Source of the DNA: a virus
Reading direction: 5' to 3' (one strand)
IMG/VR virus record: IMGVR_UViG_3300029604_000003
Length of the DNA: 60,693 nucleotides
Shown here: positions 6,501 to 25,119 of the stretch, piece by piece
Position numbering within the stretch: position 1 is the first letter of the stretch
How the letters are laid out: every line of letters starts with the position of its first letter
Made by a program: the position numbers and the translations under genes
The notes under the pieces: model-generated
Seen by the model: the letters and a program-made list of their open reading frames with translations, nothing else
What the model was told of the DNA's origin: nothing
The model's database searches: none

Positions 6501-9368
6501 CTTAAATAACAGCATCATCGTTCCGAATACGGCTACAAATTGTTTCCATCCTTTCTTCATGGAACTAAAGTCCATCTTAGAAATTTTAGACATTACTTTA
6601 GCTAATCCGTATATTGCTACCACGGAACTTAACAATGTAAGCGCTCCTCTAGCTCCGCCTAAACCATTCGCTTTTCCAACAGCAATCATAAGAACCGATA
6701 ACGATCCAACAGCTAATACTAAAGCACCAATAGTGCTCCCAGCATCTTCAATATTGTAATTAGACAACCCTTTTATAGCTTTAACCATCAGTAGTAGAGA
6801 GGCTGCTAAAGATACAATTTGAAGAGCTCCAGCAGATGCTAATTTGGCGTTAGCGCCCATTGTATATTTAGTTAATGCCCCAGAGCATATAGTAATTACT
6901 CCAACTAGACCAGTTATTACTCCAATGTTAATAGCCATAGACTTATTGATGGTCACATTTTGAAGTTTTTCTAATGCTATCGTCATTAGTAAAATACTTC
7001 CAGCGATAGAAATTACCATGGCCGAAACTCCGGAGAATCCTTTTGCTAACTTTTCTGTTGAAATAGAACCGATCGCGTAAGCAAATGCTGTTAATGCTGC
7101 TCCCAATATTCCTATCAAGACAACGGCGCCTTCGATTCGATCCTGAGGTAACACGGTTAGCAAAGCTATAGATCCTACTAATATAGCTACGGCTTTTGCA
7201 ATTTTAATCACTATGTCAGCTTTGATAGAATCCTGCCAAGTTTTAAGGGTTAGTGCTCCTTGATTCATTAATTTAATAAAGCTGTTAGCCATTGCTGATG
7301 GTAATGCAAATAAACCGCCAAATCTGTCCGTAAGAACCTGTAATAATTTAGAGAGATTATAAAGGGCCTTTACAGAAACCCCTCCTAACAAGATAGTTAA
7401 GATATTAGCTGTATTAACCTTTCCGGATTTGTCTTCAATGAAAGAAAATACACCATCAAATGTATCAATCATCGTTTTCTTAAATCCGGCTGCCTGATCG
7501 GTCCAACCTTTTAAATATCCTGTTATCTTAGACCTAAGAGAATATAATTTCGAAGTAAAAGAATCTATCGAATCTCCTGCTCCACCAAAACTCTCTTTAG
7601 CAATTGCTCCTATTCCAAGAATAGTACTGAGTAAAGCTTTGAAATCTATATGGCCAACTTCTTTACAATGATCAATAAATTCATCAATCAGTTTCCCAGC
7701 ATTTTCACCAAAGTCTTTTATATCCGGCCACAGTGTTTTAACTATTAATTCATCTAACAGTTTTATTACTTCCTGTGTACCTTTCCAATTCCATATCGCT
7801 TTCGCAAAGTACTCGACATTTTTGATGGAGAACGCTATTGCCGATGATATCAGATTAACGCCTTTGGCCACTACATCAGATACCTTCGCAAACTTGTCAA
7901 ATTGAACGATTCCATCGCCGAGAACAGCAGTAAGATCGAGTACACTATTTACAGATACTCCCAATAATTTAGAAACTATCTGTAAAGCGATTTTAAGTCC
8001 TACGCCAAGAACATTTTTAACAATTTTTACAATTGTAAACAGGCCCTTTAAAGTTCGATATAATTTATCAACTTTATCTCTAGACATTATCAGTTTCTTG
8101 GTAAAGACTTCGAATGCATCAGTTATGTTTTTTATTTCTTTTGCATTCTTTTCTGGGAATATAGCCCTATAAGCAACTCTAAATGTATCCAATACTCCTA
8201 CTGCGGCTGCCATTACGTTAACAAATGAACGCATTAAAGAATTTCGCCCACCCATTTTTTTCCAAGCGTCAAGGGTGGCATTCTTAGCTGCAAATGTTTT
8301 TACGATGTAGTTACCGATTATATTGTCTAAGAAGCCCCAAAGTTTTTTAGATTCTTCGAAGTTACCAAATATCGTTTCCCAAGTATGTTCCCATCCCGAG
8401 CCAATAGCTTCTTTCCAAGCAGCAAACATCTGTCCGGCATCTTTAAATTCAGAAGCAGCAGCATATGCTTTTTGACCAAGTTCTGTGGTTTCATCAGTAT
8501 ACTTGCTAAGTGTCTGAACAAGAACATCAGTAGTCATCCACTGATACTGAAGGTTATCATTCCAGTTTTTTGTAGCATTGAATGCGTCAGATGTAGCCCC
8601 TTTAGCATTTGTAGTTGTGGTGTAGTAGTCTTCACCCTTTTTAACGACTGTTCCTAGAGCAACGGCAGTATCAAGCAAGTTCTGTTTGAAATCCATTGTT
8701 GCCATATTAGCAACTTCAATTGATTTCCAGTCGATAAGCTTTACGTATCCGGCTGATAATGCCTGAGCAAAGTTATACATTGCGTGAGACGCCTGTTCTG
8801 CATTTGCACCAGAAATTGCCGCTTCGTTTGATACACCTTTGATTGCCGCAACTGCGTCTTTTAACCCAACACCAGCATTCGTAAACTTTCCAATATTTGC
8901 GGTCATGTCTGAGAACGAATAAATAGTTCTATCCGAATACGTATTAAGTTCGTCAAGATACTTATTTACCGTAGACAAACTTTCTCCAGTGGACATAATA
9001 ATTGTCTGAATAGAGTTCATCTTTAATTTATATTCGTTCCAACCATCGGACATACCATCAAAAGCTAAAGCAGATACTATTTTTTTGCCTGCGTCAACAG
9101 CTGCATTCGTAAGTCGATTCAGCACACTCATAACTACGGTATCCATAGCTGAGAATTTGACTTGAACTGCTTCTACCGTTCTGCCCATTCCGTCCATGTT
9201 GAACTTTTTGGTCTCATTTTGAAATTTAGCAAGACTCTTTCCAGACTCACTAAAGTCGATGCTTTTCTTAAGAGCTTCTATAGATTTTTGACTTTGACGA
9301 ATTTTTTTCTCGAATTGTCCATTCTCAAATTGCATTCGAACAACGTCGTCTTCAACAACTTTACCCAT
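570..9368 (-). CDS. Tape measure protein (about 2,932 aa)
   Basis: Longest ORF, lying between the chaperone region and Dit. It has Lys/Ala/Ser-rich helical N- and C-terminal thirds, a long hydrophobic core and tandem 62-aa repeats. I prefer the ATG at 9368 (MGKVVEDD; AGGAGG upstream; TAATG overlap with the upstream stop) over the track start at 9389. Confidence 0.85.
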   Translation of the reverse strand: MGKVVEDDVVRMQFENGQFEKKIRQSQKSIEALKKSIDFSESGKSLAKFQNETKKFNMDGMGRTVEAVQVKFSAMDTVVMSVLNRLTNAAVDAGKKIVSALAFDGMSDGWNEYKLKMNSIQTIIMSTGESLSTVNKYLDELNTYSDRTIYSFSDMTANIGKFTNAGVGLKDAVAAIKGVSNEAAISGANAEQASHAMYNFAQALSAGYVKLIDWKSIEVANMATMDFKQNLLDTAVALGTVVKKGEDYYTTTTNAKGATSDAFNATKNWNDNLQYQWMTTDVLVQTLSKYTDETTELGQKAYAAASEFKDAGQMFAAWKEAIGSGWEHTWETIFGNFEESKKLWGFLDNIIGNYIVKTFAAKNATLDAWKKMGGRNSLMRSFVNVMAAAVGVLDTFRVAYRAIFPEKNAKEIKNITDAFEVFTKKLIMSRDKVDKLYRTLKGLFTIVKIVKNVLGVGLKIALQIVSKLLGVSVNSVLDLTAVLGDGIVQFDKFAKVSDVVAKGVNLISSAIAFSIKNVEYFAKAIWNWKGTQEVIKLLDELIVKTLWPDIKDFGENAGKLIDEFIDHCKEVGHIDFKALLSTILGIGAIAKESFGGAGDSIDSFTSKLYSLRSKITGYLKGWTDQAAGFKKTMIDTFDGVFSFIEDKSGKVNTANILTILLGGVSVKALYNLSKLLQVLTDRFGGLFALPSAMANSFIKLMNQGALTLKTWQDSIKADIVIKIAKAVAILVGSIALLTVLPQDRIEGAVVLIGILGAALTAFAYAIGSISTEKLAKGFSGVSAMVISIAGSILLMTIALEKLQNVTINKSMAINIGVITGLVGVITICSGALTKYTMGANAKLASAGALQIVSLAASLLLMVKAIKGLSNYNIEDAGSTIGALVLAVGSLSVLMIAVGKANGLGGARGALTLLSSVVAIYGLAKVMSKISKMDFSSMKKGWKQFVAVFGTMMLLFKASAKAGPNASKAAVLLLGFTVSLHVLLAAFEKLQKYDFKTMAKCITDLIALMIPIGGLIKASASAGQYAARAGVMMMTVAGSIVILTAAIAILSGLDQSKMAGATAAVDSIILCMSAMIKAGDVSIDAKKSVIVAALVVGEIAGVIALLAQLDPTGVMAGSAAISLLLGVFTLCLKGFAGVGKVRASVLLAGAVLLEIAGVIGLVAQLDWKRSLAASAGLSMVLLSISASMLILQNVPIAGAINSLGSFSIFVAGLAAIIAVLGGLNKIPGFQDFMNGGVQVLEILGEGLGKLVGGIISGVGQGITDGLPQIATNLSDFAKKLQPFLSAMGKVKPEIGSSMSVLAGCIVKIAGAEIVNAISTFVNLGKDPIQKFAYQLQYLGAGMKSYGDQVANVNPETVKGTAIAAKTLVELAKAIPRSGGLAQLLAGAKDLADFGLSLIPFGAAFAIYATEVANINPGVIKGTSSAAQTLTDLANAIPEAGGLKQLLTGSKSLTSFGLSLIPFGAAFATYSSLVAGVNTSTIKATSAAAMTISEFANSIPKLDGMKEWFVGGSEDLGTFGKSMVSFGNSFAKYSDSVSKVDTESINATSAAAMTITKLAKTIPSLDGMKEWFVGGSQDLGTFGKSMVSFGKSFAKYSKTVSGIDTSTITATSAAATSIAKLNDDLPEATSAKSILFGGNKESLKKFGKNLVSFGESFVSFSTTIKGADTSNAGTIAKQLSDFINSLNGVKGGLAKKVKDMNKAFKALGKTSLKSVQNGFESKSGDFEKVGSKVVGWISTGMKNNSEDMKSPSSSVAKKFLKYVTDAFKSDTDTTDGFNSVVNSALSTANSTFKDYNSKFKDAGSSLAKNLASGMKSNSKDFSTAGTNAAIGFMSGAKNKSSDVYSTGVSLGNQLLKGMKSKKSLDEHSPSKKTNKIGAYAGEGLVKGVKSTAGDIELAGIDAGRGALLGAGKGIKDGAKKVQKTVTGYVKGIKKSISKSVGNKDVDGVMKTVNGILNAGNSTFSDQMDKTTKDIIKSANKAGNGVTSSYDATSKKIASKSKKNSKKAKIKMTKIIKVAYQFGKTFDKAVSSFNKTPYETITKISKSLGKELLKTTPKLKTLSKATKTAEKTIKNFAIALYKESDQYKEDTKSVKQHEAALKKLLKTQDRLKKGLSASGKKLSKKNLNSAIKENNTAIKNAVKQLKDDQKTIQSNINSTFKEYRNNIINSIKEYTKFTNIAFDNSRNIFSEFSDSMDDEMSTVLKNMESQVDGYQEMKDNLAKLSKNGLSKGLIDTLKGMGESGYAYIKLFANASKEEIDRANTAYAEASKQTKEDIIASYKQTYQDAVKWKSSIKKMLNQGWDIRLVQELVDEGPGNLSKVLEMLTFSDEERKEINDVYVKNLKLQKSGANDIIKSFALKKEKEAAKKKAKKAVKKTAKEVKKDVKEIPNAVSEAAKEMEKNLKKINNDWDDAKKKIEDTAKSMTESVKSSLDSFTSFVNFDISSSTDYFTRYEEVVNDLGNDTIIDRMWSQVNAEKRVIEGLEELKNMRFADGLLDYLKSLGTQAIPYIEGFKLATSEQITEVNNLFAEKMQMTKDSVKQQARDNVEAVKKWEAEILDLAKSLDPRLLKELVDQGMSAADLVDVYYSMTPAERKEMNDLYVEKLSINEEVAKTVSDSYKEAGLGAVNSMYQGMIDAATGKDVSSKKGSSRNLKGSAATKTVHAVAKSFDEVLKKDTSFKSSGKKAGNQFKAGIDSASEGVAKSAKQSAKKACTAFTNYAETNFKKAFKSSGTSLGYCFALGLAATTVLTAVESSCKSVVDKALSSFSKGSDKASSKGSALGNSFARGIRGAIPSAVSAAQELVDAVNAVLSKIQMPSLSASVNTSNLSSMVSSGVTSATGSSVAGASAGFAASIASGIAGSVFGKGNGLSKALAALQNGGRGSKTGRALKGSSTNVTNNYTFNQTNNSPVALSNKEIYRQTKNQFSQLKGALK
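4400..5420 (-). repeat. About six tandem ~186-nt (62-aa) repeats inside the tape measure gene
   Basis: Protein units of the form GG(L/M)K(Q/E)..G(S/A)..L..FG.S(L/M).(P/S)FG..FA.Y...V..(V/I)(N/D)...I..T(S/A)(S/A)AA.T(L/I)..LA..IP recur six times. DNA blocks such as gagaccatact..ccgaaagttcctaa recur at about 186-nt spacing. Boundaries are approximate. Confidence 0.8.
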
Positions 9369-9742
9369 TATCCAGTGACCTCCTTCCAAGCATCTTTAGC
9401 TAGCCTATCAAATACCGGTTTTAAAGCCGGGTTAATATAGTCAACCCCCTGAACATATCCACCATTTCTAGTTCCATGTCCATATTGTAGAATAATAGCT
9501 ATATTCACATGGTTCACTACATTAGAATTTTTAAAAACCAAACTTACTGACCCATTGCCACGAACTATTTCATAATACCACGATGCTGCTGTTACTCCAG
9601 TGTCAACAGGAGTTGCAGCCTTGAGGGCAGCTACGCCTTCACGTCCGTACTTGTTTAATATACCAACGTTAACGCCTTCCAAAAGTTTTTCGAAATAATT
9701 ATCGAGCTTTTTAAAGTTACCCTCAAGTTTGCATCTGATCAT
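9368..9742 (-). CDS. HK97 gp10-like tail/neck component (124 aa)
   Basis: ALKAATPVDTGVTAASWYYE and LQYGHGTRNGGYV resemble the HK97 gp10 family (TG.TA.SW motif). The gene is translationally coupled to the TMP start. Confidence 0.5.
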   Translation of the reverse strand: MIRCKLEGNFKKLDNYFEKLLEGVNVGILNKYGREGVAALKAATPVDTGVTAASWYYEIVRGNGSVSLVFKNSNVVNHVNIAIILQYGHGTRNGGYVQGVDYINPALKPVFDRLAKDAWKEVTG

Positions 9743-13571: not shown

Positions 13572-15467
13572 TTAGTTACCGCTGACTCCAGTTCCTGATC
13601 CAGCAGATGCCTTGCTAAGGTCTGCTGTAGGAATTTTTGTCTCGATTGCAATGGCAGATAATGGTTTGATCAGAGCACCAGAGATACGTGTCTCGATAAG
13701 ATACTTCTGAGCGTTGTAGTCGATATCGAAATCATCGAACATGTTAATAGCTCCGCCCTTGTCAGCACCAATGTTGTAATCCTGCAGGTTTACAATAATA
13801 CCCTGAAGAGCTAATGTGTCAGTCTTGTCTACACGGCTAAGACCTTCCATAACTGGAACGGAAACAATCTTAGATACACGGCACGCTGTAGCCAGCTTCT
13901 CGATGTTGTCGTAGATGATACGTCCATTCTTATCCTTCAGCAGTAAGCACTCAGTAATGATTGACTCTGGAGCGAACAGCTTTGGATTACCAGAACCCTT
14001 GTATTCGATACGTGCTCTTACACAAGCCTCAATAAATGCTGTAGCCTTCTCAGCTGCGGTTGACTCTTTTGTGATCGGAATAGCATACTTGATTGTGTAG
14101 AGATCAGCATCTTTCCAAATTGGACGGATATTGTCCTCTTTGATGTGATCGTCGCTGGATGTAAGACGTCCATCACCAACCAGAACTGCTCTTGCGATTT
14201 CCTCGTTTAGCATCATTCTCATTTCTGTTTTCAGCCAAACGATTACGTCGAAATCTGTAATATCAATTACATCATCACGATCAATCTTCTGTTTCTTGTA
14301 GATTGTCTGCGGGGTGGTTGTTCTCTTAAGTAATGAGAACACTTCTTCCTTCTTCAGTTTGCCTTTAATGTAACCTCTTGCACGAGCTTCATCCTCACGC
14401 AGGTCTGCAAATGTAGACTTGATTCTTGAGAATGGCGTGTGATGTACACCGTTCATTACCTCGGTTACCCATCCCTGATCTCTTGCAATGAACTCAGGCG
14501 GTGTGTTTAAGTTTTTGGCATCCGGGAACAGGTACTCAATATTTGTAATACCATGAGCAAGGAATGATTCTTTCATAGAACCATATCTCTTACCGTCCTC
14601 GATAATCTCCTGCATTTCGCTGTGGGACAGAACGTCTCCGTTGTCTGCATTGTTACCTTCGAATAAGTTATGTGCAATTGCACCCATGTCGTCATCCTCC
14701 TCTTCATATTCTTCGGAATCGTCATCATCTTTGTCAGGATCTTCGTCGTCATCTTTGTCAGGATCTTCGTCGTCATCCTCCTCTTCATATTCTTCGGAAT
14801 CGTCGTGATCCTCCTCTTCATCCTCGTCCTCGTATTCATCTTCGTCTTCGAGAGCGTTAGGATCTTCTGCTAATGCACTTCCTACAGCCATGTAGAAAGC
14901 ATCCTTCTGTTCTGGCGTCATTGTATCAACGACATCCTGAATGCTCTTATTATCCACTTCGTCTTCTCCTTTCTCATCTGAGTGCATAATCTCAAGATAC
15001 TCTCCCGAATAAATATATGCCTCATAATCATCATTGTCAATTGTGTCGCCATGTGCTAAGGCAACATCTTCAATGTATGCTCCTGGATTTGCTCCTGCAA
15101 GAACAAGGCTAAGTTCTTTAATTTCACCATGCTGAACATATGGCCCACGCTGCTGAAGATGATTAGCCCAAATGCTAAGCGAATCCATATCTCCGTGCTG
15201 AACAGCATCTTTCGCGATTTGACCATTATCTGAACCGTTGAAATATCCGTACGCATAAATACCATCTTTTCGGCATTCCATATAAGCATGCCCAAGCACG
15301 CCATTAATGTTATCGTGATCATGGTTATACACTAATGGAACTTTAGCGCCATCGATATCATCAAAAGCACCATGCTGAATAATTCTTCCATCAGCGCAAA
15401 GAATACCAAACTTTGTAGCCCAGCCCTTAAAGTCGCAATCGGCATACTTTGAGCGTTTAGCTCCCAT
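13572..15467 (-). CDS. Prohead protease - acidic scaffold-like linker - HK97-type major capsid protein fusion (631 aa)
   Basis: The N-terminal ~140 aa (FKGWATKFGILCADGRIIQHGAFDD..VPLVYNHD) match the HK97-family (S78) prohead protease pattern. Residues 201-260 are almost pure Asp/Glu. The C-terminal ~360 aa sit in the capsid position, and no separate protease, scaffold or capsid gene is present. Confidence 0.7.
   Translation of the reverse strand: MGAKRSKYADCDFKGWATKFGILCADGRIIQHGAFDDIDGAKVPLVYNHDHDNINGVLGHAYMECRKDGIYAYGYFNGSDNGQIAKDAVQHGDMDSLSIWANHLQQRGPYVQHGEIKELSLVLAGANPGAYIEDVALAHGDTIDNDDYEAYIYSGEYLEIMHSDEKGEDEVDNKSIQDVVDTMTPEQKDAFYMAVGSALAEDPNALEDEDEYEDEDEEEDHDDSEEYEEEDDDEDPDKDDDEDPDKDDDDSEEYEEEDDDMGAIAHNLFEGNNADNGDVLSHSEMQEIIEDGKRYGSMKESFLAHGITNIEYLFPDAKNLNTPPEFIARDQGWVTEVMNGVHHTPFSRIKSTFADLREDEARARGYIKGKLKKEEVFSLLKRTTTPQTIYKKQKIDRDDVIDITDFDVIVWLKTEMRMMLNEEIARAVLVGDGRLTSSDDHIKEDNIRPIWKDADLYTIKYAIPITKESTAAEKATAFIEACVRARIEYKGSGNPKLFAPESIITECLLLKDKNGRIIYDNIEKLATACRVSKIVSVPVMEGLSRVDKTDTLALQGIIVNLQDYNIGADKGGAINMFDDFDIDYNAQKYLIETRISGALIKPLSAIAIETKIPTADLSKASAGSGTGVSGN
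14688..14867 (-). repeat. Poly-acidic low-complexity tract with internal direct repeats (capsid fusion linker)
   Basis: The protein reads EDPNALEDEDEYEDEDEEEDHDDSEEYEEEDDDEDPDKDDDEDPDKDDDDSEEYEEEDDD. DNA blocks (cctcctcttcatattcttcggaatcgtc; atctttgtcaggatcttcgtcgtc) each occur twice. Confidence 0.85.
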
Positions 15468-15481
15468 TTTGAATTCCTCCT

Positions 15482-16726
15482 TTATTGTTCTTCTGTTTCC
15501 TCGTCAGCAGAATTTGTATTATACATCTGATCCAATTCAGTGTTCGACGCCGAAATATTATTGTTCGTCAGCGTATCTGCCTTAGGATCATCTACTGGCC
15601 TTAGGCCAATTACTTGACGGAACTCATTGGACGTCATGATACAGTTTCTCGTGAACTTATCAGCAAGCTCTGCAAGATTTGTAGTAGACACCAGTTTGAA
15701 TGGGTCCCTGAAATATTTAATTGCATGCCCTTTGGTCCTAGCAGTCTTTGTTAAGAACTTCCGATTCATCTCATCTACGACTGCTGCAAGTATTGGCTCA
15801 ACTATACTATTGTAGTAGTTATTCATTGTATTCTCGTCTGCTGTGCCATTGAGAATCTCTACCGTCATTCCAAGCTGAGAGAATAACAAATTTGTGAAAT
15901 ACTCTACCTGCTTGAGTAAATTGTTTTCAATCGACCTATTGAGCTGCGTTACATGCTCAGTAGAATCGATGTAAGCAATGCCGTATTCCGAGCTTGCCAA
16001 TTGTTCAGTAAGTTCTTTACGACGTTCTTTAGCCTGAGCTCTCTTTGCTTCGGACTTAATCGTATATGGCAACTGAATAATCAAATCAAGCTTATCAGAT
16101 CCACTTCGATCATCTATGAAATCGAGAATTGCAAGCTTTCTTTTCAGTCGATGTGCCGTTGAATTCTGTGCATTCATAATTGCATAGAATGGATTTTCAA
16201 CGATCGCGACCATTTTCTTTGGAAGGTCCATTTCCTCGAATTCACCAGTGTGATCATTGTAGATTCGCACTCTAACATGGCGCGGATACCAATTGATTAT
16301 CTTTGCTGTACGCATCGTCTGAATATCGTAAACGTTGCCATGCACAGGGTCCATAGTCGTATCAATCGGAACTATAGCAACGCATCCTTCGTCAAGAAGT
16401 TTCAGGAAAATATCCTGTTTAAACGCTCGCGATGTCTGATCAATATTGGCTTCCATTGTTAAACAGTAGTTAAGCCCATCCTCAACGTCGTCAGTAAAGC
16501 GTTTGTCTGCGTCTAGCATGACGTGTTCTACGTCAATTGCTGCGGCATCTACGGATATCTTATTGTAGATCGTTGTAACGATTGACCGCTCATTTCCCAT
16601 CGTAAGTCTAGGACGAGATGGATTGTCATAACTCACTGCGCCAAGACCAGTTCCATTTTGATACGCTGTTGGATCTTTGTTCATAAATGCATTCCAACCA
16701 TGCTTTAATCTGTTCATAAAACCCAT
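15482..16726 (-). CDS. Portal protein candidate (414 aa)
   Basis: Lies between the terminase and capsid genes and has a size compatible with a small portal. The N-terminal pattern ERSIVTTIYNKISVDAAAIDVEHV recalls portal/connector families. Confidence 0.55.
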   Translation of the reverse strand: MGFMNRLKHGWNAFMNKDPTAYQNGTGLGAVSYDNPSRPRLTMGNERSIVTTIYNKISVDAAAIDVEHVMLDADKRFTDDVEDGLNYCLTMEANIDQTSRAFKQDIFLKLLDEGCVAIVPIDTTMDPVHGNVYDIQTMRTAKIINWYPRHVRVRIYNDHTGEFEEMDLPKKMVAIVENPFYAIMNAQNSTAHRLKRKLAILDFIDDRSGSDKLDLIIQLPYTIKSEAKRAQAKERRKELTEQLASSEYGIAYIDSTEHVTQLNRSIENNLLKQVEYFTNLLFSQLGMTVEILNGTADENTMNNYYNSIVEPILAAVVDEMNRKFLTKTARTKGHAIKYFRDPFKLVSTTNLAELADKFTRNCIMTSNEFRQVIGLRPVDDPKADTLTNNNISASNTELDQMYNTNSADEETEEQ

Positions 16727-16737
16727 AAGTAATCTCC

Positions 16738-17691
16738 TTATTTAGTAAGGTAATCCAGATAAGCTTTGCCTGCACGCTTAGCTTTATTGAAAGATCTGCT
16801 TACTTTCTTAGATTTCTTCTTAGCTGATTTGTAAGCTTTGCTGGCATCTCTAGAAACTCTATTGTATTCTTTCTTAGCTGACTTATATGCCTTGTTAACA
16901 TTCTTCTTTGCCGATGTTACATAAGGTTTAGCATCATTGGCAAGCTTCTGACCAGCTCGTTCAATTTTGTACTCTGCCTTTGATCTGACAGAATTTGCCT
17001 TATTGCGTGCTTCTGCAGAAGTCATTGCACGGTCTCTAGCAGTTGACGTAGCTTTTCTTACTTTCTTATATGCACCAGTCTTCTTAACATCACGAGCAAG
17101 TTTCTGTCCAGCTCTGGTAACTTTGTACTCACCCTTTGAAATTACAGACTTTGCTTTTGCCCTTGCAGCGTTTGCTGTTGGGGATTTTGAAGCTTTATCC
17201 AGAAGATATCTTGCTGCTACTGTCTTTGCAACTGCATCTCTGGTCGCTACCTTTTTAGCAAAGTTTGCTGCTTTCTTAACTTTTGTTGAAGGGGCATTCT
17301 GTTTCTTAACATTGGCTGCAATTTGTTTCATCTGTCGGTCCTGCTTCTTCTTTACCATATCAGCATTCTTCTTAGCTACAGTATGAGCATTCATTGCTCT
17401 GACACGTTTTTGGAAATCTTTTTCTTTTTGGACCTTCTGTGCTGCAATTGCATCTGTTGGACCTTTATAAGGTATATTCTTTTTTGCTTGATTAGCGGCA
17501 TTGTTCTTATAACGAAGCTTTTGCATTGCTTGCCGCCTCTGTATTAATACAGCATTTTTTTGTGCTGCTTCATCTTCAGGATAAATATATCTACCGTTCT
17601 CGATACGAATATATTTATGATTTTTCCAGCTATGTTTGAGAACGGTGTTTCCGTCCTCATCGGTGGCCTTGTAATATACAGAATTACTCAT
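16738..17691 (-). CDS. Highly basic Lys/Ala-rich repeat protein with degenerate HxY..R..GRY motif (317 aa)
   Basis: The N-terminus VYYKATDEDGNTVLKHSWKNHKYIRIENGRYIYPED aligns with the N-terminus of the adjacent 178-aa protein. The rest is K/A/R-rich with an internal duplication (KGEYKVTRAGQKLARD / KAEYKIERAGQKLAND). Confidence 0.6.
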   Translation of the reverse strand: MSNSVYYKATDEDGNTVLKHSWKNHKYIRIENGRYIYPEDEAAQKNAVLIQRRQAMQKLRYKNNAANQAKKNIPYKGPTDAIAAQKVQKEKDFQKRVRAMNAHTVAKKNADMVKKKQDRQMKQIAANVKKQNAPSTKVKKAANFAKKVATRDAVAKTVAARYLLDKASKSPTANAARAKAKSVISKGEYKVTRAGQKLARDVKKTGAYKKVRKATSTARDRAMTSAEARNKANSVRSKAEYKIERAGQKLANDAKPYVTSAKKNVNKAYKSAKKEYNRVSRDASKAYKSAKKKSKKVSRSFNKAKRAGKAYLDYLTK

Positions 17692-17714
17692 ATTACCATC
17701 CTTTCTGTTTCTTT

Positions 17715-18251
17715 TTAAGTTTTTTGAACGTATTTTGCACCACGGATAGAAGCTAACTCAGCATCTACCGCTTTCTTCTTTTCTGCAGTTCTGCTTGTAC
17801 GCCGTTTGATTGCTTCAGCCTTCCTGGTGTACTTAGCAGCTTTCTTTCCATAACGGTTCGCTTTCTTCCGAGCTCGTTCGGCTTTTTGAAGATTTCCGGT
17901 ATACCCAATATCTGTAATAGCGTGGTCACGCTTAACACGTTTTGCCTCTTCCTTTTCTTTGAACTTGACTCTTTTAGTCATAGCTTCTGAAGCTTTTCGT
18001 TCGTAATCAGATATACGTGACTTTGTCTTCTGAGAAGTTTGTTTCTTCATCTTAGATGCAAGTCGATCCGATTTTGACTCTAGATGCGATGCTCTTCTTC
18101 CAGAATGCTGATACGGATCTTTTCCCGATCCATACTTGTAACGGCCAGACCGCCTTGGCAGTCCATAATGTTCCAGATGGTCACCGCCTAAGCCCGAATG
18201 AACTAACGAAAACGTGCCATCGTCATTCTTTATTTTTACATACATAACCAT
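17715..18251 (-). CDS. Basic protein with HYGLPRRSGRYKYGSGKDPYQ motif (178 aa)
   Basis: The motif is read at aa 28-47, and the remainder is Lys/Arg-rich. The gene lies immediately downstream of TerL. Confidence 0.6.
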   Translation of the reverse strand: MVMYVKIKNDDGTFSLVHSGLGGDHLEHYGLPRRSGRYKYGSGKDPYQHSGRRASHLESKSDRLASKMKKQTSQKTKSRISDYERKASEAMTKRVKFKEKEEAKRVKRDHAITDIGYTGNLQKAERARKKANRYGKKAAKYTRKAEAIKRRTSRTAEKKKAVDAELASIRGAKYVQKT

Positions 18252-18256
18252 TACTC

Positions 18257-19999
18257 CTATTCGAATGCGTCTTTATTAACTTTGTAAGCAACAAGTGCAT
18301 CCATCAATGCTGAGACGTTATCGATTTTGTCTTCGTAACGTTTCTTGTACAGTTTCCTGTTTCCGTTTGTATCTTCCAATGTTATGCAATGGCCCATACA
18401 GAAACTCATTAAAGATTCATCGAATATCAGCATCCTCTTTTCCGATAATTTCTTAATTTCTCCAAGAGGAACCGTTTCAGTTCTAACGCCCTGCGGAACT
18501 TTCTCAATTCCGAATGACCCATTCTCCTGAGCCCATCTTTCAATAAACTCTTTTGCATTATATGGGTCATAGCCCAAAGCGCAAACATCATACTGAGCGT
18601 CTATTATGAACTTGTCGAGATCCTCATATACATCTTGCACATCGATGATGCTTCCCTCCATAACAATAAGAGTGCCTTCGTCGATAAACTCTTGATACTT
18701 TTGTCTCATTGCTAAGTTCAACTTACTCAAAGTAAGTGTGGTTATATAACTTCTAACTTTTACTCCAAACATTCCGTTTCTCAGTGGGAACAAGAATGTG
18801 AAAGCACAGAAGTCATCACCTTGAGAAAGGTCCGCTCCCATTGCGCATGACATTTTCCAAAAGCTTCTAGGTCTGTGCGGAAGTGTTTCTTCGTAAGAGA
18901 AATAATATGTATATCCCTCCATAGGAATTCCGAAACGTTTTGCCAGAATATCATTTCTTGTAGCTGGTGCTTTCTCAGCTCGTTCAACATCTTGCTGAAT
19001 CGTCTCATAGCTGACTGTGATCGGTAGGTTCGGATTAGCCTTAGGCCACATGTCTGGGTCTCCGACTTCATCCACGCTATCAAGCCTGTAATACCAAATA
19101 CTAGTATGCCAGTTCTGGTATTCGCCTTTGAGAATGTCCATTAATTCCATTTTAATGGCATCTCCACATCCATTACGGACGGTACCTTCCGAACTTACTG
19201 CTAAGATTACATATCCATCTATTTTGGCTGCACCCTGCTCGATCGCACCAATTGGATCTTCTCTCAATTCACCAGAGAGCCATTCGTCAACCGTTGCTAC
19301 TTTTACTCGTAATCCCTGAAGTTTGTTAATGCTCAGGGGTCTTATCTCGAGTAGTGAATCCGTAAGAAAGTTCTGTATACCTTTTTTGGTTGATGCAAGC
19401 TTTACACGGTTCGCTTTTGAACCTGTGGTGTTCTGTATAGAACCTTCGGTTAAAAACTGGAACACCGGCCCTCTCGCTCTGGCTATGGCAGTGCTAATCG
19501 CACTTGTAACCTCTTCAGCCTGTTTCATTGTTGGGGCTGTTGTAATCTGATGTGTCGTTGTTGTATCGACTGTCAGAAAATAAGCTTGCACTAAACTCTC
19601 GTATAACGATTTTGCATTACTTCGAGAAATGATAAGATACTGTTTGTTGACAAGACGCTTTTTGACGGATTTCCTTACGAAATGTCCGCCTCGTCCAGAA
19701 GCATTTGGTTCATACACCGTTTTCTCAACGTAATAGAACCAACCAAATAATTGCTCTCCCCAAAGTTTAAATGTATCCAACAGTTCCAAGTCGGACCCAT
19801 CGGTCAAGACCATTTCAGATTCACAGAAAGCAATCCATCCTTCTACAGCATTGTCGTCATAGTATACACCGGGGTTAGCTATAAGCCAATCAATACGGTT
19901 CATCTCCATGGAAATCTCCCTATTAACAGGAATCTCTCCATCCAGGACTTTATCTCGGAACTCCCCGTAGTACCTAGGCGTTGCCGTATTGCTTAGCAT
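18257..19999 (-). CDS. terL: Terminase large subunit (580 aa)
   Basis: Size and N-terminal layout are typical of Terminase_1-type TerL. It has a Walker A-like IISRSNAKS, a Walker B-like VKVATVDEW, and a C-terminal nuclease-region pattern ALGYDPYNAKEF. An HNH gene lies nearby. Confidence 0.8.
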   Translation of the reverse strand: MLSNTATPRYYGEFRDKVLDGEIPVNREISMEMNRIDWLIANPGVYYDDNAVEGWIAFCESEMVLTDGSDLELLDTFKLWGEQLFGWFYYVEKTVYEPNASGRGGHFVRKSVKKRLVNKQYLIISRSNAKSLYESLVQAYFLTVDTTTTHQITTAPTMKQAEEVTSAISTAIARARGPVFQFLTEGSIQNTTGSKANRVKLASTKKGIQNFLTDSLLEIRPLSINKLQGLRVKVATVDEWLSGELREDPIGAIEQGAAKIDGYVILAVSSEGTVRNGCGDAIKMELMDILKGEYQNWHTSIWYYRLDSVDEVGDPDMWPKANPNLPITVSYETIQQDVERAEKAPATRNDILAKRFGIPMEGYTYYFSYEETLPHRPRSFWKMSCAMGADLSQGDDFCAFTFLFPLRNGMFGVKVRSYITTLTLSKLNLAMRQKYQEFIDEGTLIVMEGSIIDVQDVYEDLDKFIIDAQYDVCALGYDPYNAKEFIERWAQENGSFGIEKVPQGVRTETVPLGEIKKLSEKRMLIFDESLMSFCMGHCITLEDTNGNRKLYKKRYEDKIDNVSALMDALVAYKVNKDAFE

Positions 20000-20009
20000 T
20001 TTGCATCAC

Positions 20010-20585
20010 CTACTTCTTTTTCTTTTTCGTACTATTTGTTTCAGCTTTAACTGCTTCATTAATCATCTTCTGAGCGGCAGCATTGAGTTTACCCTTGATA
20101 TAAACTTTTCCTTGTTCTTTCACAACTTCTGTAACTGCAGGAACAATAATATCTTTCATAGCTTTATCAACTAACATCTTTGGTAATGGCTGCTTCTGCG
20201 GATGGTTTTTAAGGTATGTGGCTTCCATCTGATCTCGAGTATTTATTCGTTTAAGCTCTTCATCAGATAAAGTTTTTACATATGCCTTTTCGTTTCTGTA
20301 TTTAGATTTTTTTTGTTTCTTTTTATCAAGTTGGACTGCTTTGGTTCTTTCTCTTCTTTTGTTATTTTGTTTTTCAACTCCACTCTTTTTAGAAAAACTT
20401 TTTATAAACTTTTCACCAGCTTTAGCCGATGATCTAAGACTTTGATATGGTTCCTTCCCAGATCCCCATTTGTATCTTCCGGATCGTCTTGGTAATCCGT
20501 AATGTGCTAGATAATAGTCAGAGAATTCCTGATTGTTGACTAAGAAGTCTTTTACATCATCTGCTGAGTAATTAGTCATCGTCAT
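20010..20585 (-). CDS. Basic protein with HYGLPRRSGRYKWGSGKEPYQ motif (about 191 aa)
   Basis: The motif is read at track aa 34-54, with a Lys-rich C-terminal half. I chose the ATG at 20585, which follows AAAGGAGAG. The gene lies immediately upstream of TerL. Confidence 0.6.
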   Translation of the reverse strand: MTMTNYSADDVKDFLVNNQEFSDYYLAHYGLPRRSGRYKWGSGKEPYQSLRSSAKAGEKFIKSFSKKSGVEKQNNKRRERTKAVQLDKKKQKKSKYRNEKAYVKTLSDEELKRINTRDQMEATYLKNHPQKQPLPKMLVDKAMKDIIVPAVTEVVKEQGKVYIKGKLNAAAQKMINEAVKAETNSTKKKKK

Positions 20586-20946
20586 TCTCTCCTTTCTTAT
20601 CATCTTCGGAAACAGGATAGTACATTATGTACAATCTCCATTCCATTTCCTTAAGTTGCTCTTTCAAACTGTCCATTAATGAACCACTTGTTGGCGGATC
20701 GAATAACAGACGAGTTTTGATGTACACATAATCTTTTATCAAACTTGACTTCTGAGTGTCCTCTTCGAATTCACTCCAGACATTATCCGGACCAGTGATT
20801 CGGTATCCTTCTTTCGGACCAACTCCTAATTGAGTGAGAGCTGCAAATGCAGAATTGATATGAATGGTTAAATCCAAGTCAAACTGCTCAAAGTCGTCAG
20901 GACATCCAATAAGCTGCTTGATAGTCTTAAGAATGCTCTCTTCCAT
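20572..20946 (-). CDS. Head-tail connector / DNA-packaging-type small protein (124 aa)
   Basis: MEESILKTIKQLIGCPDDFEQFDLDLTIHINSAFAALTQLGVGP...FDPP resembles gp6/gp15-like connector families. The start at 20946 follows GAGGAGG. Confidence 0.4.
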   Translation of the reverse strand: MEESILKTIKQLIGCPDDFEQFDLDLTIHINSAFAALTQLGVGPKEGYRITGPDNVWSEFEEDTQKSSLIKDYVYIKTRLLFDPPTSGSLMDSLKEQLKEMEWRLYIMYYPVSEDDKKGENDDD

Positions 20947-20957
20947 TGAATTCCTCC

Positions 20958-21389
20958 TCAATGTTTCCAAGGGCATGTATCATTTGGTCTCCTTATTACA
21001 GGGCCGCTACGAACATTTGTATCGTGTCCATAGTGTATGGCATTATGTGTTTGATGGGTTGTTGTCACAACGTTATTCATGTCGAATACCATTGGGTCTC
21101 GGTTAAGTATCATCTCTTTGGTAACTGGATTTATGTGATGTATCAACGGTCGTGTTTGTATCTCGTATCCTTCAACACCTAAATCGCAACCGCCATCTCT
21201 GACAATTACTTTATGACGAAACTCTCTCCATTCGCCTGATGAATATAATGCCTGATTAACCCATCGGTCATAGCCGAATGTCTCGTATCCAACAGAACCA
21301 AACAGCATTAAATATTGCAGTCGTTCTTCAAACGAAGAATACTGGATCATTTCCAAATATGATCGTGACATTGGACTTGATCTACTCAT
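20958..21389 (-). CDS. HNH endonuclease (143 aa)
   Basis: HHINPVTKEM...NNVVTTTHQTHNAIHYG is an HNH (H-N-H) core. It lies next to the terminase genes, as in cos-type HNH/TerL systems. The start ATG at 21389 overlaps the upstream stop. Confidence 0.75.
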   Translation of the reverse strand: MSRSSPMSRSYLEMIQYSSFEERLQYLMLFGSVGYETFGYDRWVNQALYSSGEWREFRHKVIVRDGGCDLGVEGYEIQTRPLIHHINPVTKEMILNRDPMVFDMNNVVTTTHQTHNAIHYGHDTNVRSGPVIRRPNDTCPWKH

Positions 21390-21708
21390 CTTCGATACCC
21401 TGGTATCTACGCATTGCTTCAATTGCTGCGGCGTATCTCTCTTCACTCTTAGCAGAAGCTTCCAACGAATCGATTTTGGCTTTAGTCTGCTTTGTTTCTT
21501 CTCTGAGCTTGTCCTGTTCCAGCTGTTCTCTTGAAGAACCGAGTTTTAAGAAATGTGTAATGACCTGCGATGAGGCTGTGCCTTCACGTAACTGCTTTTC
21601 AGCAGCATCGAGTGAGAGATTAATCAAGTACTGTTCCCTGTCTTCAGGAGTCATAGGAACCCTTGAACGCTTCTTTGCGGAAGTAGCTGTCGCTGCTCTT
21701 CTTCCCAT
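21382..21708 (-). CDS. Small terminase-like / DNA-packaging protein candidate (108 aa)
   Basis: First gene of the late block. It has a basic N-terminus followed by a helical, coiled-coil-like body. Assigned mostly by position upstream of HNH and TerL. Confidence 0.35.
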   Translation of the reverse strand: MGRRAATATSAKKRSRVPMTPEDREQYLINLSLDAAEKQLREGTASSQVITHFLKLGSSREQLEQDKLREETKQTKAKIDSLEASAKSEERYAAAIEAMRRYQGIEDE

Positions 21709-21753
21709 ATACTTTTGTCTCCTTTCTAATATCTTTTGCCAAGGTTTCGAATA

Positions 21754-21879
21754 CTTTACGCCCTCTCTATAAGAGATCTTGGTATGTTTTAATGACCCTG
21801 AAAGGAGTCTTTAACTGAAAGAGGGTCCTTCTATGTGCGACAAAAGAAGACCAAGATCTCTTATAGAGAGGGCGTAAAG
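21754..21879. repeat. Perfect 30-bp inverted repeat (21754-21783 / 21850-21879) with 66-nt spacer
   Basis: ctttacgccctctctataagagatcttggt is the exact reverse complement of accaagatctcttatagagagggcgtaaag. The spacer contains a nested gaccct...agggtc repeat. Confidence 0.9.
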
Positions 21880-22062
21880 TCGCTAACCTAAAATCCATTT
21901 TGACAGGATTTTAACCCCCGGAGAATTTTCAAGGAGGCCGGCGATGACAGAGGGGGTGCTATTTTTACGACCCCCCTCCGGGTGCTAGCTGAGACACTCG
22001 AACGCTATTTAGAGTCTTCGTGTTTGTGAAAGCTCTAAAAACATTCAAATCTCAACTTTTGT

Positions 22063-22401
22063 TTACTTGTTTCTATGGATTTTTGGTTTTGTTTCTCCGT
22101 TTACACGAGTTACTCTAAAGTATTGGCCCATGAAATCGTTATTGAGAATCTTGTTGATAGCAATAGCCAAACGCTCTTCATACTCAGCATCACTCATATC
22201 TGATGTGTCAGTATCAAAGTATCTAGCTAAGTATCCTGAAGTGCAATAGCCTTTTGACTCGTCAAACCTGTACCAATTGTCGAAATCAACAAAAGGATCA
22301 AAAGGGTTATCCACTGTTGTGATCCATATATGTAATGTATCATTGCGATCAGCAGGACTTTGCGTTGCTAACTTAAGTGATTCATCTTCTGCATTGCTCA
22401 T
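22063..22401 (-). CDS. Hypothetical acidic protein (112 aa)
   Basis: Minus-strand ORF coupled to the upstream gene. No motif recognised. Confidence 0.55.
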   Translation of the reverse strand: MSNAEDESLKLATQSPADRNDTLHIWITTVDNPFDPFVDFDNWYRFDESKGYCTSGYLARYFDTDTSDMSDAEYEERLAIAINKILNNDFMGQYFRVTRVNGETKPKIHRNK

Positions 22402-22419
22402 TCCCCCAATTCTCCTTTC

Positions 22420-25119
22420 CTATAAATATTTATTGATAGTTGATACAGAAAGTCCAGTTGCTTCAGCGACTTCAGCTTGTGTATAACCGAAGTTAAGCAT
22501 AGACTTGATTCGTGAAACTTGTGAAGCATTAACTGTAACAGCTTTTCTAGGTGAAGCGAGTTGCTTAACCTTGTCTGAATCAGCATTGTTAAGTATTTGC
22601 TCAAGCTTTGATGTACTGATTGCACCAGCTTGAATTGCTTGCCATTCTCTTTCAGATATGTCGATCTGAACATTAGACTTAGATGCGCCAACTTTTGCTC
22701 TAGCTGCTGTTAAAGACTGCTGACCAGCTCGTTTGATTTCATCCGGTGTCCAATCAGGATTAGCTGCTTGCTTCTTCTTTAATGTCTTGTTAGCTATGAT
22801 TTGGGCCTGTCGCTCCTTTGGTGCGTTCTGTAATGCCCTGTTTAACTTAGCATTAAGACTTGCAACTTCTGCTGAATACACTGTTTTAGCTTGAGCATTC
22901 ATCTCAATATTCTTAGTTGCAACCTGATTCTTTCTTGCTAAATTAGCCATATGCTTAAGGGCATTGGCATAGTCGGCATATGCGACCTCTTTTGGATTCG
23001 GGTCCTTAGATAATAAGGTACCTGCATCCTTAGTGGCCGCCATCTTGGTTGTTTTTACAGTAGCCAGTTTTTCACCATTTGATTCCCAACTACCGTCTTT
23101 GTTTCTTTTCCAGTCCGTATAGGTACGCCCCGTAGCCTCTGGATGTACTTCACCAGTCTTAGGATCGATATCCTTTAAACGAATCTGTTTTGTTTCTGGA
23201 ACATACGCCACTGACTTAGCCCGGGATAGGAGTGTGGATGCACCAGCATCACTGGCACCCTGGTACTTCTTCTTTAACTCGGCTATACGGTTCTCTTCAA
23301 AGGACCTCTTATAGTCCAGTCCATGCTTAGGGGCATCGATTACAACCATTGAGTGACGTACCGCTCTTGCAATTTCTTCAGGCTTTGCACCTTTCAGTGT
23401 CATATCATTAATCAGGTTGGAGATCTTACCCATTTCCAATCCTTTACGTTTCTCAGGAAGTTTTGCTGTAACTCCTTCAATGCCACGGTAGGCAATCTTA
23501 GGATCGAAATCTTTTAAACCAACATAAGCACTAATATCAGAAGTAGTTATCTTAACTTTGGATTTTGGTGAATTAGACGGAATTACTACTGCAGTGTCAC
23601 CATCAAAGTCAGCTCCTGACAATCTTTCAGCAACCTTGGAGTTGATACCGACAGCATCAATTGCATTACCAAGCATTGCTCTTCCTTGTGGATTCTTATT
23701 GTTTACTTTGAGTTCCGGAATCTCGAATGTACCACCATGCGGATAACGAACAAGACATACTGTTTCTCCATTCTTATATGATGGTGCATATATCTCGTTA
23801 TCTTTCAGAGAAGAAACGGGTAATATTACCTTAGAGCTTTGTCTTGGAAGTGCTGCTGCTTTAAGATCCACTGCCTGGCTGTCGCAACCTTCAGCAAAGT
23901 CTGCTAACAACTTCCGTTTAACAACTGGGTTTGTCATTTTGAGGATCTTATCAAGCTCATCCTGACGATTGTCAATCGATTGCTTAAGCTGCTTCTTGAT
24001 CAATGGAAGCTGCTGCTTTGACAGGAACTGAGAAGCAAGGTTCTTAGAATAGTGATCCCAATCGCCTTCCTCTTTCAGCTTATTGATAGCTCCGAGCTTT
24101 TCATTTCCATCTTTATCTTTGTAATGGTACTGACCGTTTGCCTTAATTGTTGCTCCAAATGGGTTGTCCGGATCATCTTTCATCTTCTTGAAGACATCCA
24201 TCTTTGGTACATCACTTGTCTTGTTGGTATTGAATATAACATCAACGCCTTTTGGCATGTCATCTGAATAGATTGCCATACCTTTCAGATAATGAGTGCC
24301 ATCAACAGCGATTCGCACCTGTGCATAATGTGAGTCTCCAAGATCCAGATCTGCAACTCCTCTTCGAAGCTCAATAACACCATCTTTCTCTAATCCGCCT
24401 TTATCACCATATCTTACAGCTACTCGGCTTGACGAGATACTTGATGGATACTCTGGTGCCCAGAATGTTGTTCCACCATCATGAGAATACTCATTTACTG
24501 GCTGAATCTTGTCAGTGTGCTGCTGAACATCTTTCCATTCAGTTCCTGGAGGGCAAAGAACTTTTGTGGTCGTGTACTGGCCTTTCTGATTGATCTGTGG
24601 AACTCTGACTGAATGTACTTCATAACCAGCTTCTTTTAAGATCTGAAGAGATACATCCAATCTTGTTTTGGTAATTCCCATTTCTCTTTCGACTCCAGTA
24701 CCAACATCGACAAAATTCTTAGTGCCGACTCTCTTGGCTAAAGTCTCTGCTGCATTGATACATGCATCTTTCTTAAGCTTTTCACCCTGGTTCAATAACG
24801 ATCGAACTGTCGACTCTTTTGTTGCAGAGTCAAACATCATTTCAGCTATTTTGACATTGGAATAGCCATGCTCTTTCAACTTCATAGCTCTATTGATTCG
24901 ATCTACTTTCTCAGCATTAACATAAATTGACTGCTTATTTCGAAACTCAGTCGTTTTCATACCCATGAATGCAGCAATCTCTTTTTCACTTTTTCCTCGA
25001 GCTTTCATCTCTTGGACAGTCCTTAAGAATTCTGCATTATGCTGGTATGGATTATCCCCAGAACCCCAAGGATAACGACCGGAATGGCGTTTAGTGCCAT
25101 AATGTGCTAAGTGGCTCAT
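22420..25119 (-). CDS. Single-chain two-barrel RNA polymerase (YonO / QDE-1-like), 899 aa, with N-terminal HYG..GRY.WGSG motif and HTH-like ends
   Basis: RLSGADFDGDTAVV occupies aa 499-512, with DFDGD encoded at 23596-23610. It is preceded by CLVRYPHGGTFEIPELKV, and an upstream barrel-like segment reads HYLKGMAIYSDDMPKGVDVIFNTNKTSDVPK. The C-terminal GYTQAEVAEATGLSVSTINKYL looks like a helix-turn-helix. Confidence 0.7.
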   Translation of the reverse strand: MSHLAHYGTKRHSGRYPWGSGDNPYQHNAEFLRTVQEMKARGKSEKEIAAFMGMKTTEFRNKQSIYVNAEKVDRINRAMKLKEHGYSNVKIAEMMFDSATKESTVRSLLNQGEKLKKDACINAAETLAKRVGTKNFVDVGTGVEREMGITKTRLDVSLQILKEAGYEVHSVRVPQINQKGQYTTTKVLCPPGTEWKDVQQHTDKIQPVNEYSHDGGTTFWAPEYPSSISSSRVAVRYGDKGGLEKDGVIELRRGVADLDLGDSHYAQVRIAVDGTHYLKGMAIYSDDMPKGVDVIFNTNKTSDVPKMDVFKKMKDDPDNPFGATIKANGQYHYKDKDGNEKLGAINKLKEEGDWDHYSKNLASQFLSKQQLPLIKKQLKQSIDNRQDELDKILKMTNPVVKRKLLADFAEGCDSQAVDLKAAALPRQSSKVILPVSSLKDNEIYAPSYKNGETVCLVRYPHGGTFEIPELKVNNKNPQGRAMLGNAIDAVGINSKVAERLSGADFDGDTAVVIPSNSPKSKVKITTSDISAYVGLKDFDPKIAYRGIEGVTAKLPEKRKGLEMGKISNLINDMTLKGAKPEEIARAVRHSMVVIDAPKHGLDYKRSFEENRIAELKKKYQGASDAGASTLLSRAKSVAYVPETKQIRLKDIDPKTGEVHPEATGRTYTDWKRNKDGSWESNGEKLATVKTTKMAATKDAGTLLSKDPNPKEVAYADYANALKHMANLARKNQVATKNIEMNAQAKTVYSAEVASLNAKLNRALQNAPKERQAQIIANKTLKKKQAANPDWTPDEIKRAGQQSLTAARAKVGASKSNVQIDISEREWQAIQAGAISTSKLEQILNNADSDKVKQLASPRKAVTVNASQVSRIKSMLNFGYTQAEVAEATGLSVSTINKYL

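Follow-up and report, generated by a model that had tools for sequence, protein, structure and literature searches.

The IMG/VR virus record IMGVR_UViG_3300029604_000003 is a stretch of DNA of 60,693 nucleotides (nt), which was analysed over its whole length and is called the window below. All genes of the region discussed here lie on its minus strand. They include the gene for an 899-amino acid (aa) single-subunit RNA polymerase (RNAP; 22420-25119), the gene for the large terminase subunit TerL (18257-19999; Pfam TerL_nuclease, 1.3e-37, and TerL_ATPase; phrog_9) and, on either side of the latter, genes for two small basic proteins, p197 directly upstream (20010-20603) and p178 directly downstream (17715-18251). 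The RNAP, p197 and p178 share a short sequence motif towards their N-termini, which is probably the core of a modular N-terminal peptide (~20-25 residues) that loads cargo into the capsid for ejection.

A six-frame regular expression scan with the patterns HYG..R.SGRY, SGRY.[WYF]GSG and GSG..PYQ found exactly three matches in the window to the full form HYG..R.SGRY.[WYF]GSG..PYQ, every one of them on the minus strand: at 25042-25104 in the RNAP (aa 6-26, HYGTKRHSGRYPWGSGDNPYQ), at 20442-20504 in p197 (aa 34-54 of the 197-aa open reading frame (ORF), HYGLPRRSGRYKWGSGKEPYQ) and at 18108-18170 in p178 (aa 28-48, HYGLPRRSGRYKYGSGKDPYQ). A preliminary description of this DNA had placed the motif in the RNAP and in the protein just upstream of TerL at these same positions, giving the latter a length of 191 aa, which is the count from Met7; the copy in the 178-aa protein is likewise present, with its start one codon away from the 18111 given there. 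The same description had called three small proteins extremely Lys/Arg-rich, and p197, p178 and p317, a Lys/Ala-rich protein encoded between p178 and the portal gene (16738-17691), indeed surpass all other real ORFs of the window in basicity (pI 10.05, 10.35 and 10.48, respectively), with 25-27% lysine plus arginine.

Chance does not account for the three copies, as strict matches were absent from 200 residue shuffles of the six frames and a loose version of the pattern arose 0.035 times on average. Fourteen of the 21 residues are invariant among the window copies, 13 of these 14 using different codons, and identity at third codon positions between copies is 0.29-0.33, i.e. randomised. Because the third positions have been randomised while the residues stayed invariant, the copies are old and maintained by selection on the peptide, which is conserved where the DNA is not; a recent duplication or gene conversion is ruled out by the same randomised positions. 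Similarity between p197 and p178 is confined to the motif (BLASTP E 2e-14). That the small proteins are homologous to the RNAP past the tag was also considered, with PHROG alignments reaching profile positions ~105-136, but BLASTP and inspection leave only the tag itself.

The RNAP matches phrog_4291 along its full length (E = 0), has helix-turn-helix (HTH) domains at its N- and C-terminus and contains the catalytic loop GADFDGD (aa 502-508; 23596-23616, minus strand), of which D504, D506, G507 and D508 are invariant in 52 homologues (~55% identity). An AlphaFold2 model built on these homologues (mean predicted local distance difference test score (pLDDT) 80.8; predicted template modelling (TM) score 0.69) gave Neurospora QDE-1 (2j7n/7y7s; E 2e-8, probability 1.00) as the best Foldseek match, followed by the beta' subunits of cellular RNAPs, at a global TM-score of only ~0.3. 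Because of the phrog_4291 match, the invariant loop and the QDE-1-like predicted fold, the 899-aa protein is assigned to the YonO-like two-barrel RNA polymerases. It resembles YonO of the Bacillus prophage SPbeta and the family of Lactococcus phage 1706 in its DxDGD loop and QDE-1-like fold. The 1706 protein had previously been placed among YonO-like two-barrel proteins (PMC2919709), and a YonO-like RNAP has been described as a signature of a supercluster of phages of Actinobacteria and Firmicutes (bioRxiv 10.1101/842583). Clustered at 90% identity, the family makes up at least 8000 homologue clusters, most of them from gut metagenomes. Public labels of its members include 'phage tail protein', 'helix-turn-helix protein' and 'NarL/FixJ response regulator', and Pfam detects only the terminal HTH domains. 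A sequence search of the PDB with the RNAP returned a single weak match (E 0.0035) over aa 481-525 (nt ~23545-23679), the active-site region, to 8h2m/8h2n. The name under which these entries were deposited, 'Tape tail measure protein', may be wrong, and the protein a relative of the RNAP family.

Within the RNAP family the tag stands out. Ten of its 21 residues are invariant in the 52 homologues (H6, G8, S13, G14, R15, Y16, G19, S20, G21 and Q26), against ~21% of positions in the whole protein, and the first 27 residues form the best-conserved stretch of the family. These same residues 1-27 have a pLDDT of 32-37 and no secondary structure in the AlphaFold2 model. A segment that is the best conserved of the RNAP and yet has no predicted fold is what would be expected of a linear motif that binds a partner. 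The long form of the motif occurs in 249 of the 250 phage records that carry the RNAP, nearly always as a single copy at the start of the RNAP; among IMG/VR loci with enough upstream DNA, 38 of 39 encode the RNAP, with the long form kept. Some homologues have a divergent tag, L.HEGRS.LDGAPVGSGRYP[LR]GSG.NP.Q, in which HYG has become HEG and the Trp is lost (locus L068, ~1700-1800; L084, ~2000-2100), and a second tag copy of a similar form, HGGPGSGRYPLGSG, is seen in the proteins P0268 and P0325.

The two small carriers are close companions of TerL. The p197 gene stops 10 nt before TerL, and the p178 gene begins 5 nt after it. p197, of the phage 1706 ORF7 family (phrog_7021, phrog_24711), measures 197 aa from the first ATG, 191 from Met7 and 189 from Met9, the start used by its homologues. 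Against orthologues from the clade of close relatives of the window phage, dN/dS (the ratio of non-synonymous to synonymous substitution rates) is 0.08-0.13 for p197 and 0.05-0.13 for p178, so both small ORFs are real genes under strong purifying selection. Orthologues of p178 are found in the window clade only.

That the tag might be a nucleic-acid-binding hook, an AT-hook-like PRRSGR common to these proteins because they bind DNA or RNA, had been put forward in the preliminary description as an alternative, and it would suit both the R/K-rich positions of the long form and the very basic character of the window carriers. The sequences read PRRSGRY and TKRHSGRY, however, without an RGRP core, and invariance falls on H, Y, G, S, G, R, Y, G, S, G and Q. 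Nor does the hook agree with the wider family set out below, in which a short form of the tag without any basic stretch occupies the same gene slot and the carriers include GNAT enzymes, a toxin and membrane proteins; no Pfam AT-hook match was obtained. The missing core, the pattern of invariant residues, the short form and the cargo contradict this alternative, and we regard it as highly improbable.

The wider occurrence of the tag was surveyed in 80 IMG/VR loci around relatives of TerL. In almost every one of these, tagged basic ORFs (median pI 10.0) abut TerL on one or both sides, and the first tag lies at median residue 11 of the carriers. Two forms can be distinguished: form A, the long form L.HYG..R.SGRYPWGSG..PYQ, and form B, the short form L.H[HY]G[IV].G[MQ]KWGVRR, which is Pfam DUF7211 (PF23847), a 25-residue family of unknown function matched by 105 of the 129 carriers. 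The gut phage MT835495 (L002) has the gene order of the window, viz. RNAP, phrog_4259, HNH, PF24829 connector, two small proteins and TerL, and its small proteins begin LYHHG[VI][RK]GQKWGVRRYQ and match DUF7211. DUF7211 proteins occupy the slots of p197 and p178 in L002, in the phages Circum, Trustiboi and ReqiPoco6, and in ~70 IMG/VR loci. Among isolated phages, the short form is found in Circum gp7 (two copies) and gp9, 1706 ORF7 (two copies), Trustiboi gp8-gp12, all of which begin ..FL.HYGVKGMKWG, and ReqiPoco6 gp15 and gp18-gp23. The long form on small proteins is confined to the window clade (L006-L015; 96-100% TerL identity) and some metagenomic phages that an exhaustive search brought up. 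Profile searching for classes of carrier, as envisaged in the preliminary description, gave mixed returns: a 5.8-billion-protein index yielded fragments of at most 85 aa, mostly truncated RNAP N-termini, and the informative result was that of the exhaustive search of representatives, which gave 1754 representatives at E <= 1e-3.

Forms A and B are probably variants of one module. DUF7211 and the window tags have in common their place in the connector-TerL-portal slot, their N-terminal position, an acidic-x-L-x-H-[HY]-G head and a W-G tail; the window tags differ by a four-residue insertion (R.SG), by the GSG..PYQ extension and by falling below the threshold of the model. The window RNAP, p197, p178 and p317 gave no DUF7211 match at E <= 0.1 (gathering score 27 bits), and carriers of the window clade none at E <= 0.001, whereas slot orthologues in relatives score 28-57 bits with E down to 1e-15. 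A long-form intermediate, P0243 (LEHFGVKRRSGRYPYGSG), reaches 30.4 bits against the first half of the DUF7211 model (profile positions 3-14). Both forms place an acidic residue four positions and Leu two positions before the His (96% of form A, 92% of form B), columns that lie outside the search patterns, and both have the H-[YH]-G head and the W-G tail, the latter reading G-x-x-(x)-W-G. Hhalign aligns the two heads with a probability of 92%, at a P-value that is inflated, both input sets having been selected by regular expression.

With its tag removed, p197 retains a tail that matches form-B proteins encoded upstream of TerL in relatives (phmmer E ~1e-5), and it has phrog_7021 and phrog_24711 in common with the 186-aa DUF7211 protein of the same slot in L002. 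Its conserved helix (20211-20270, minus strand; LSDEELKRINTRDQMEATYL), of the form LS..EL.....R..LE..Y, recurs in Circum gp7, Trustiboi gp6, ReqiPoco6 gp15, 1706 ORF7, the L002 186-aa protein and P0241-P0248. Because its tail, its PHROGs and its helix all tie p197 to form-B proteins of the same slot, the window clade is a case in which form A has naturally replaced form B on an orthologous protein. By these comparisons, the identity of the small-protein tag with the long form of the RNAP is a peculiarity of the window clade. The helix itself lies near the C-terminus of all proteins directly upstream of TerL, whatever their tag form or central domain; helix-bearing members of the ORF7 family are encoded at L004 2819-3826, L086 3242-3721, L087 14111-15727 and L003 2501-3889.

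Behind the tag, the relatives carry a changing set of proteins, with the cargo genes in the connector-TerL-portal slot in nearly all of them. Carriers number two per genome in the window phage and up to six to nine elsewhere. GNAT acetyltransferases follow the tag in Trustiboi gp10 and P0325, and a 2H/LigT phosphoesterase does so in ReqiPoco6 gp15 (Pfam); another tagged 2H/LigT phosphoesterase may be gp13 of the Gordonia phage Fazel, whose annotation reads 'RNA ligase'. P0248, a papain-fold glutamine-deamidase toxin (PF15644), also has the tag, and in L088 its gene lies exactly between those of the connector and TerL. Such effector domains (PF15644 toxin, GNAT, 2H/LigT) are located at L088 1884-3599 (P0248), L086 6894-7427 and L087 14111-15727. 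Several carriers have transmembrane helices, and many others are basic and without domains. In members of the ORF7 family (Circum gp7, 1706 ORF7, P0241-P0248, ReqiPoco6 gp15) the tag is also found internally, with two copies per protein. A MuF domain was matched in no window carrier or related carrier. The repertoire resembles known head-packaged, injected effectors (PMC5512222; PMC5576092; PMC3482391) and suggests that the tagged enzymes form a variable set of injected anti-host or anti-defence enzymes.

The distribution of the tag follows that of the polymerase. Two DUF7211 queries, each of a different flavour, were run against 50,697 phage records and matched 217 and 75 of them, and these came only from RNAP-carrying genera, viz. 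phages of Arthrobacter, Gordonia, Streptomyces, Rhodococcus, Curtobacterium and Microbacterium, 1706-like phages of Lactococcus, and phages of Faecalibacterium and of gut metagenomes. The tag, the RNAP, a PF24829 connector upstream of TerL and a fusion of prohead protease and capsid protein make up one package. In the window the connector gene lies upstream of p197 (20572-20976, minus strand; PF24829 Phage_connect_2, 3.9e-30; phrog_4247).

A link to the virion comes from Lactococcus phage 1706. Its whole genome contains three instances of the tag only, two in ORF7, the p197 orthologue, and one in ORF75, the RNAP, and both proteins are annotated 'structural protein' in GenBank. Outside the morphogenesis module this label is given to three of 55 1706 ORFs, ORF75 being one of the three. 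The RNAP homologue of ReqiPoco6, gp106, is annotated 'structural protein' as well, by similarity to 1706 gp75. The suggestion in the preliminary description that the RNAP is packaged in the virion thereby gains independent, albeit indirect, support.

These observations also bear on two other ways of explaining the tag. It could be a docking module for a partner other than the capsid during infection, whether a host protein or a phage transcription or replication complex, recruiting its carriers to one site in the cell. A peptide that is conserved yet predicted to be disordered resembles a partner-binding linear motif of any kind, and the RNAP and the presumably DNA-binding basic proteins could cooperate on DNA. 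Such a partner would not explain why the carriers are encoded in the packaging and head module in nearly every relative, why their toxin, GNAT, 2H and membrane cargo is typical of injected effectors, or why the annotation of 1706 makes virion components of its two tagged proteins, and we consider it unlikely.

Alternatively, the tag could bind the terminase or the packaging motor, with p197 as the missing small terminase subunit (TerS) or with the basic proteins riding in on the DNA. Genes of the p197 family do occupy the usual place of TerS, directly upstream of TerL, their products are basic with a conserved helix, and the annotations of many relatives give a 'terminase' or a large subunit only. 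Unlike TerS, however, 1706 ORF7 is annotated as a virion protein; genomes have up to six to nine tagged proteins, enzymes among them, and the RNAP is tagged too; and a separate phrog_4259 protein (21382-21708) is encoded upstream with an HNH endonuclease, as is typical of cos/HNH packaging modules. Binding to the terminase is on these grounds very unlikely.

Two head components of the window are candidate receptors for the tag, namely the portal protein (15482-16726, minus strand; Pfam Phage_portal, 1.8e-13; phrog_12) and a fusion of the prohead protease and the major capsid protein (13572-15467, minus strand), the same fusion being annotated in 1706 orf10, Circum gp12 and Trustiboi gp14. The small basic proteins have net charges of +26, +29 and, for p317, +61, against -72 for the protease-capsid fusion. 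Between its protease and capsid domains, the fusion contains a poly-acidic linker (14688-14867, minus strand) of 60 residues, 77% of them Asp or Glu (EDEDEYEDEDEEEDHDDSEEYEEEDDDEDPDKDDD...), and a milder acidic linker lies at the same place in 1706 orf10, Circum gp12 and Trustiboi gp14. That the linker pairs electrostatically with the very basic tagged proteins is put forward only as an idea.

With a protease joined to the capsid protein, and hence present inside the procapsid, the tag might also be a recognition or cleavage element of the prohead protease, removed as a propeptide at maturation in the manner of the T4 capsid-targeting sequence, which both targets and is cleaved (PMC9024508). 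Its N-terminal position and the acidic residues ahead of it in both forms would be in keeping with this. The internal and doubled tags of the ORF7-family proteins, on the other hand, argue against a simple leader, and no conserved cleavage-like site follows the tag. We think a propeptide quite unlikely as the explanation, and it would in any case be compatible with a loading peptide.

Taken as such a loading peptide, the tag would work as follows. Unstructured alone, it would fold on a partner inside the assembling procapsid, this partner being the portal or else the protease-capsid fusion, at its inner face or its acidic linker. In this way tagged proteins would enter the capsid and later be ejected, along with the DNA, into the host cell. 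In the window phage the cargo would consist of the two-barrel RNAP, which would transcribe the incoming genome, together with at least p197 and p178, basic proteins with a probable role in binding or neutralising DNA. The cargo of relatives, carried by the same tag, would comprise acetyltransferases, 2H phosphoesterases, a glutamine-deamidase toxin and proteins that span the membrane. What we infer is that the tag binds a head component and brings about encapsidation, that ejection follows, and that the basic proteins act as proposed. The preliminary description already contained the idea that a single short module, placed on unrelated proteins, serves as a docking or targeting signal. This idea fits the comparative evidence, because the tag is N-terminal, predicted to be disordered, highly conserved, attached to unrelated cargo, encoded in a fixed slot and bound to the RNAP supercluster; the fourth carrier proposed there, p317, and the AT-hook alternative are not supported.

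Several points weigh against this explanation. Binding of the peptide to a head component and its need for encapsidation are predictions, and the receptors named are candidates. Evidence from virions consists of the GenBank annotation of one distant relative, and virion mass spectrometry can pick up contaminants. The small proteins of the window fall below the DUF7211 threshold, and the relation between forms A and B rests on synteny, intermediates and an inflated hhalign result. In most relatives the RNAP has form A and the small proteins form B, so that their receptors or jobs may differ. Finally, an RNAP of ~100 kDa would need to pass unfolded through a siphovirus tail. For the broader proposal, viz. 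that the tag is a universal, portable cargo tag of a very large clade of siphoviruses of Gram-positive hosts (with hosts among gut Clostridia, lactococci and many Actinobacteria, and no fewer than 8000 RNAP clusters), by which a YonO-type RNAP is co-injected with changeable effectors, we see the chances as evenly balanced.

A virion RNAP and loading by a short peptide both have precedents. N4 and the crAss-like phages, the latter with the two-barrel enzyme gp66, make a phage RNAP late in infection, carry it in the capsid and inject it for transcription of early genes. To our knowledge, no shared loading tag is known for either. The packaging of the N4 RNAP has been described (PMC5512222). The window RNAP differs from these enzymes in being YonO/QDE-1-like, with an HTH domain at both ends, and in belonging to a siphovirus; the indication that it is packaged comes solely from the way its homologues in 1706 and ReqiPoco6 are annotated. 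N-terminal capsid-targeting sequences are known from T4 IPIII and P1 DarB (PMC9024508), where unrelated proteins that begin with a short peptide enter the procapsid and reach the host, and where this peptide is portable to other cargo (PMC9024508). An N-terminal peptide on unrelated proteins is the trait that the window tag shares with them. It has no evident sequence similarity to the T4 and P1 sequences, and the function proposed for it comes from sequence comparison. Unlike T4 and P1, the phages concerned are siphoviruses of Gram-positive hosts with a protease-capsid fusion and no separate scaffold core, and the tag is strongly conserved across phyla and often doubled in one protein, whereas the P1 Dar proteins are without a consensus. 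Head-packaged effectors in general also have precedents (PMC5512222; PMC5576092). MuF toxins and polyvalent proteins combine variable effectors (toxin, GNAT, phosphoesterase) with a module that places them in the head, encoded beside the portal and terminase genes (PMC5576092; PMC5512222); in the window phage and its relatives the common module is a peptide of ~20 residues and not a folded domain.

Parts of this picture are already known, namely the RNAP family and its presence in the supercluster, the virion annotation in 1706, the DUF7211 entry, capsid-targeting sequences and other virion RNAPs. The papers on YonO-like RNAPs make no mention of the N-terminal motif, of other carriers or of virion packaging (PMC2919709; bioRxiv 10.1101/842583). 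A literature search found no relevant work on DUF7211, on the motif strings or on a siphovirus virion RNAP, and no prior description was found of the link between the RNAP N-terminus and DUF7211, the modular use of the tag in a fixed slot, its strict co-occurrence with the RNAP or the reading that results.

Proteins injected with the genome set the first minutes of infection, i.e. early transcription, anti-defence and host takeover, and are mostly unpredictable from sequence. If the tag is indeed a loading peptide, it would offer a sequence-defined handle by which injected proteins could be predicted and engineered, and for thousands of phages from the gut, dairy and soil, genomes would reveal which proteins are injected. 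These would be the first siphoviruses with a virion RNAP, and their early transcription would be independent of the host polymerase. Loading by the tag would also explain why the YonO-like RNAP gene of the supercluster stands beside the packaging genes. Pfam DUF7211 would receive a function, and a small tag would become available for the delivery of proteins into Gram-positive bacteria. Cultivable members exist (1706, P092, Mudcat/Circum, ReqiPepy6 and FP_oengus), so the idea is directly testable.

The remaining basic protein of the slot, p317, had been credited with a degenerate fourth copy of the motif. The strings quoted for it are present in the sequence, but comparison with p178 gives a BLASTP E of 3, p317 matches none of the motif patterns and no Pfam or PHROG family, and we reject it as a fourth carrier. 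Its N-terminus (..LKHSWKNHKYIRIENGRYIYPED) is instead a distinct module that recurs in syntenic proteins of other phages and that may be related to the motif. This 'motif C' (HKYIRIENGRYIYPED; 17572-17619, minus strand) is found again in the p317 orthologues of the clade (L010, L011 and L013, near 4170-4340), in both proteins between TerL and portal in L088 (5379-5963 and 5979-7133; ..HSAKGS.WKDHKYIRKENG.Y.YAED) and, loosely, in the third module of 1706 ORF7. Its consensus, L.HS..WK.HKYIR.ENG.Y.Y.ED, is seen on Lys/Ala-rich TerL-portal proteins of long-tag phages and is covered by no Pfam or PHROG family. Because it fills the same N-terminal slot in syntenic basic proteins of form-A phages, motif C may be a third type of tag.

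Promoter and terminator scans around these genes gave counts at chance level and were uninformative on the timing of expression. Upstream of the connector, the phrog_4259 protein (21382-21708, minus strand; motif GTASSQVITHFLKLGS), which is small and conserved and whose gene overlaps that of the HNH endonuclease (20958-21446, minus strand), is a candidate small terminase subunit of a cos/HNH-type packaging module. At 570-9389 on the minus strand lies a single ORF of 2939 aa with long hydrophobic and repeat-rich stretches, unusually large for a siphovirus-like genome of 60 kb, which probably encodes the tape measure protein.

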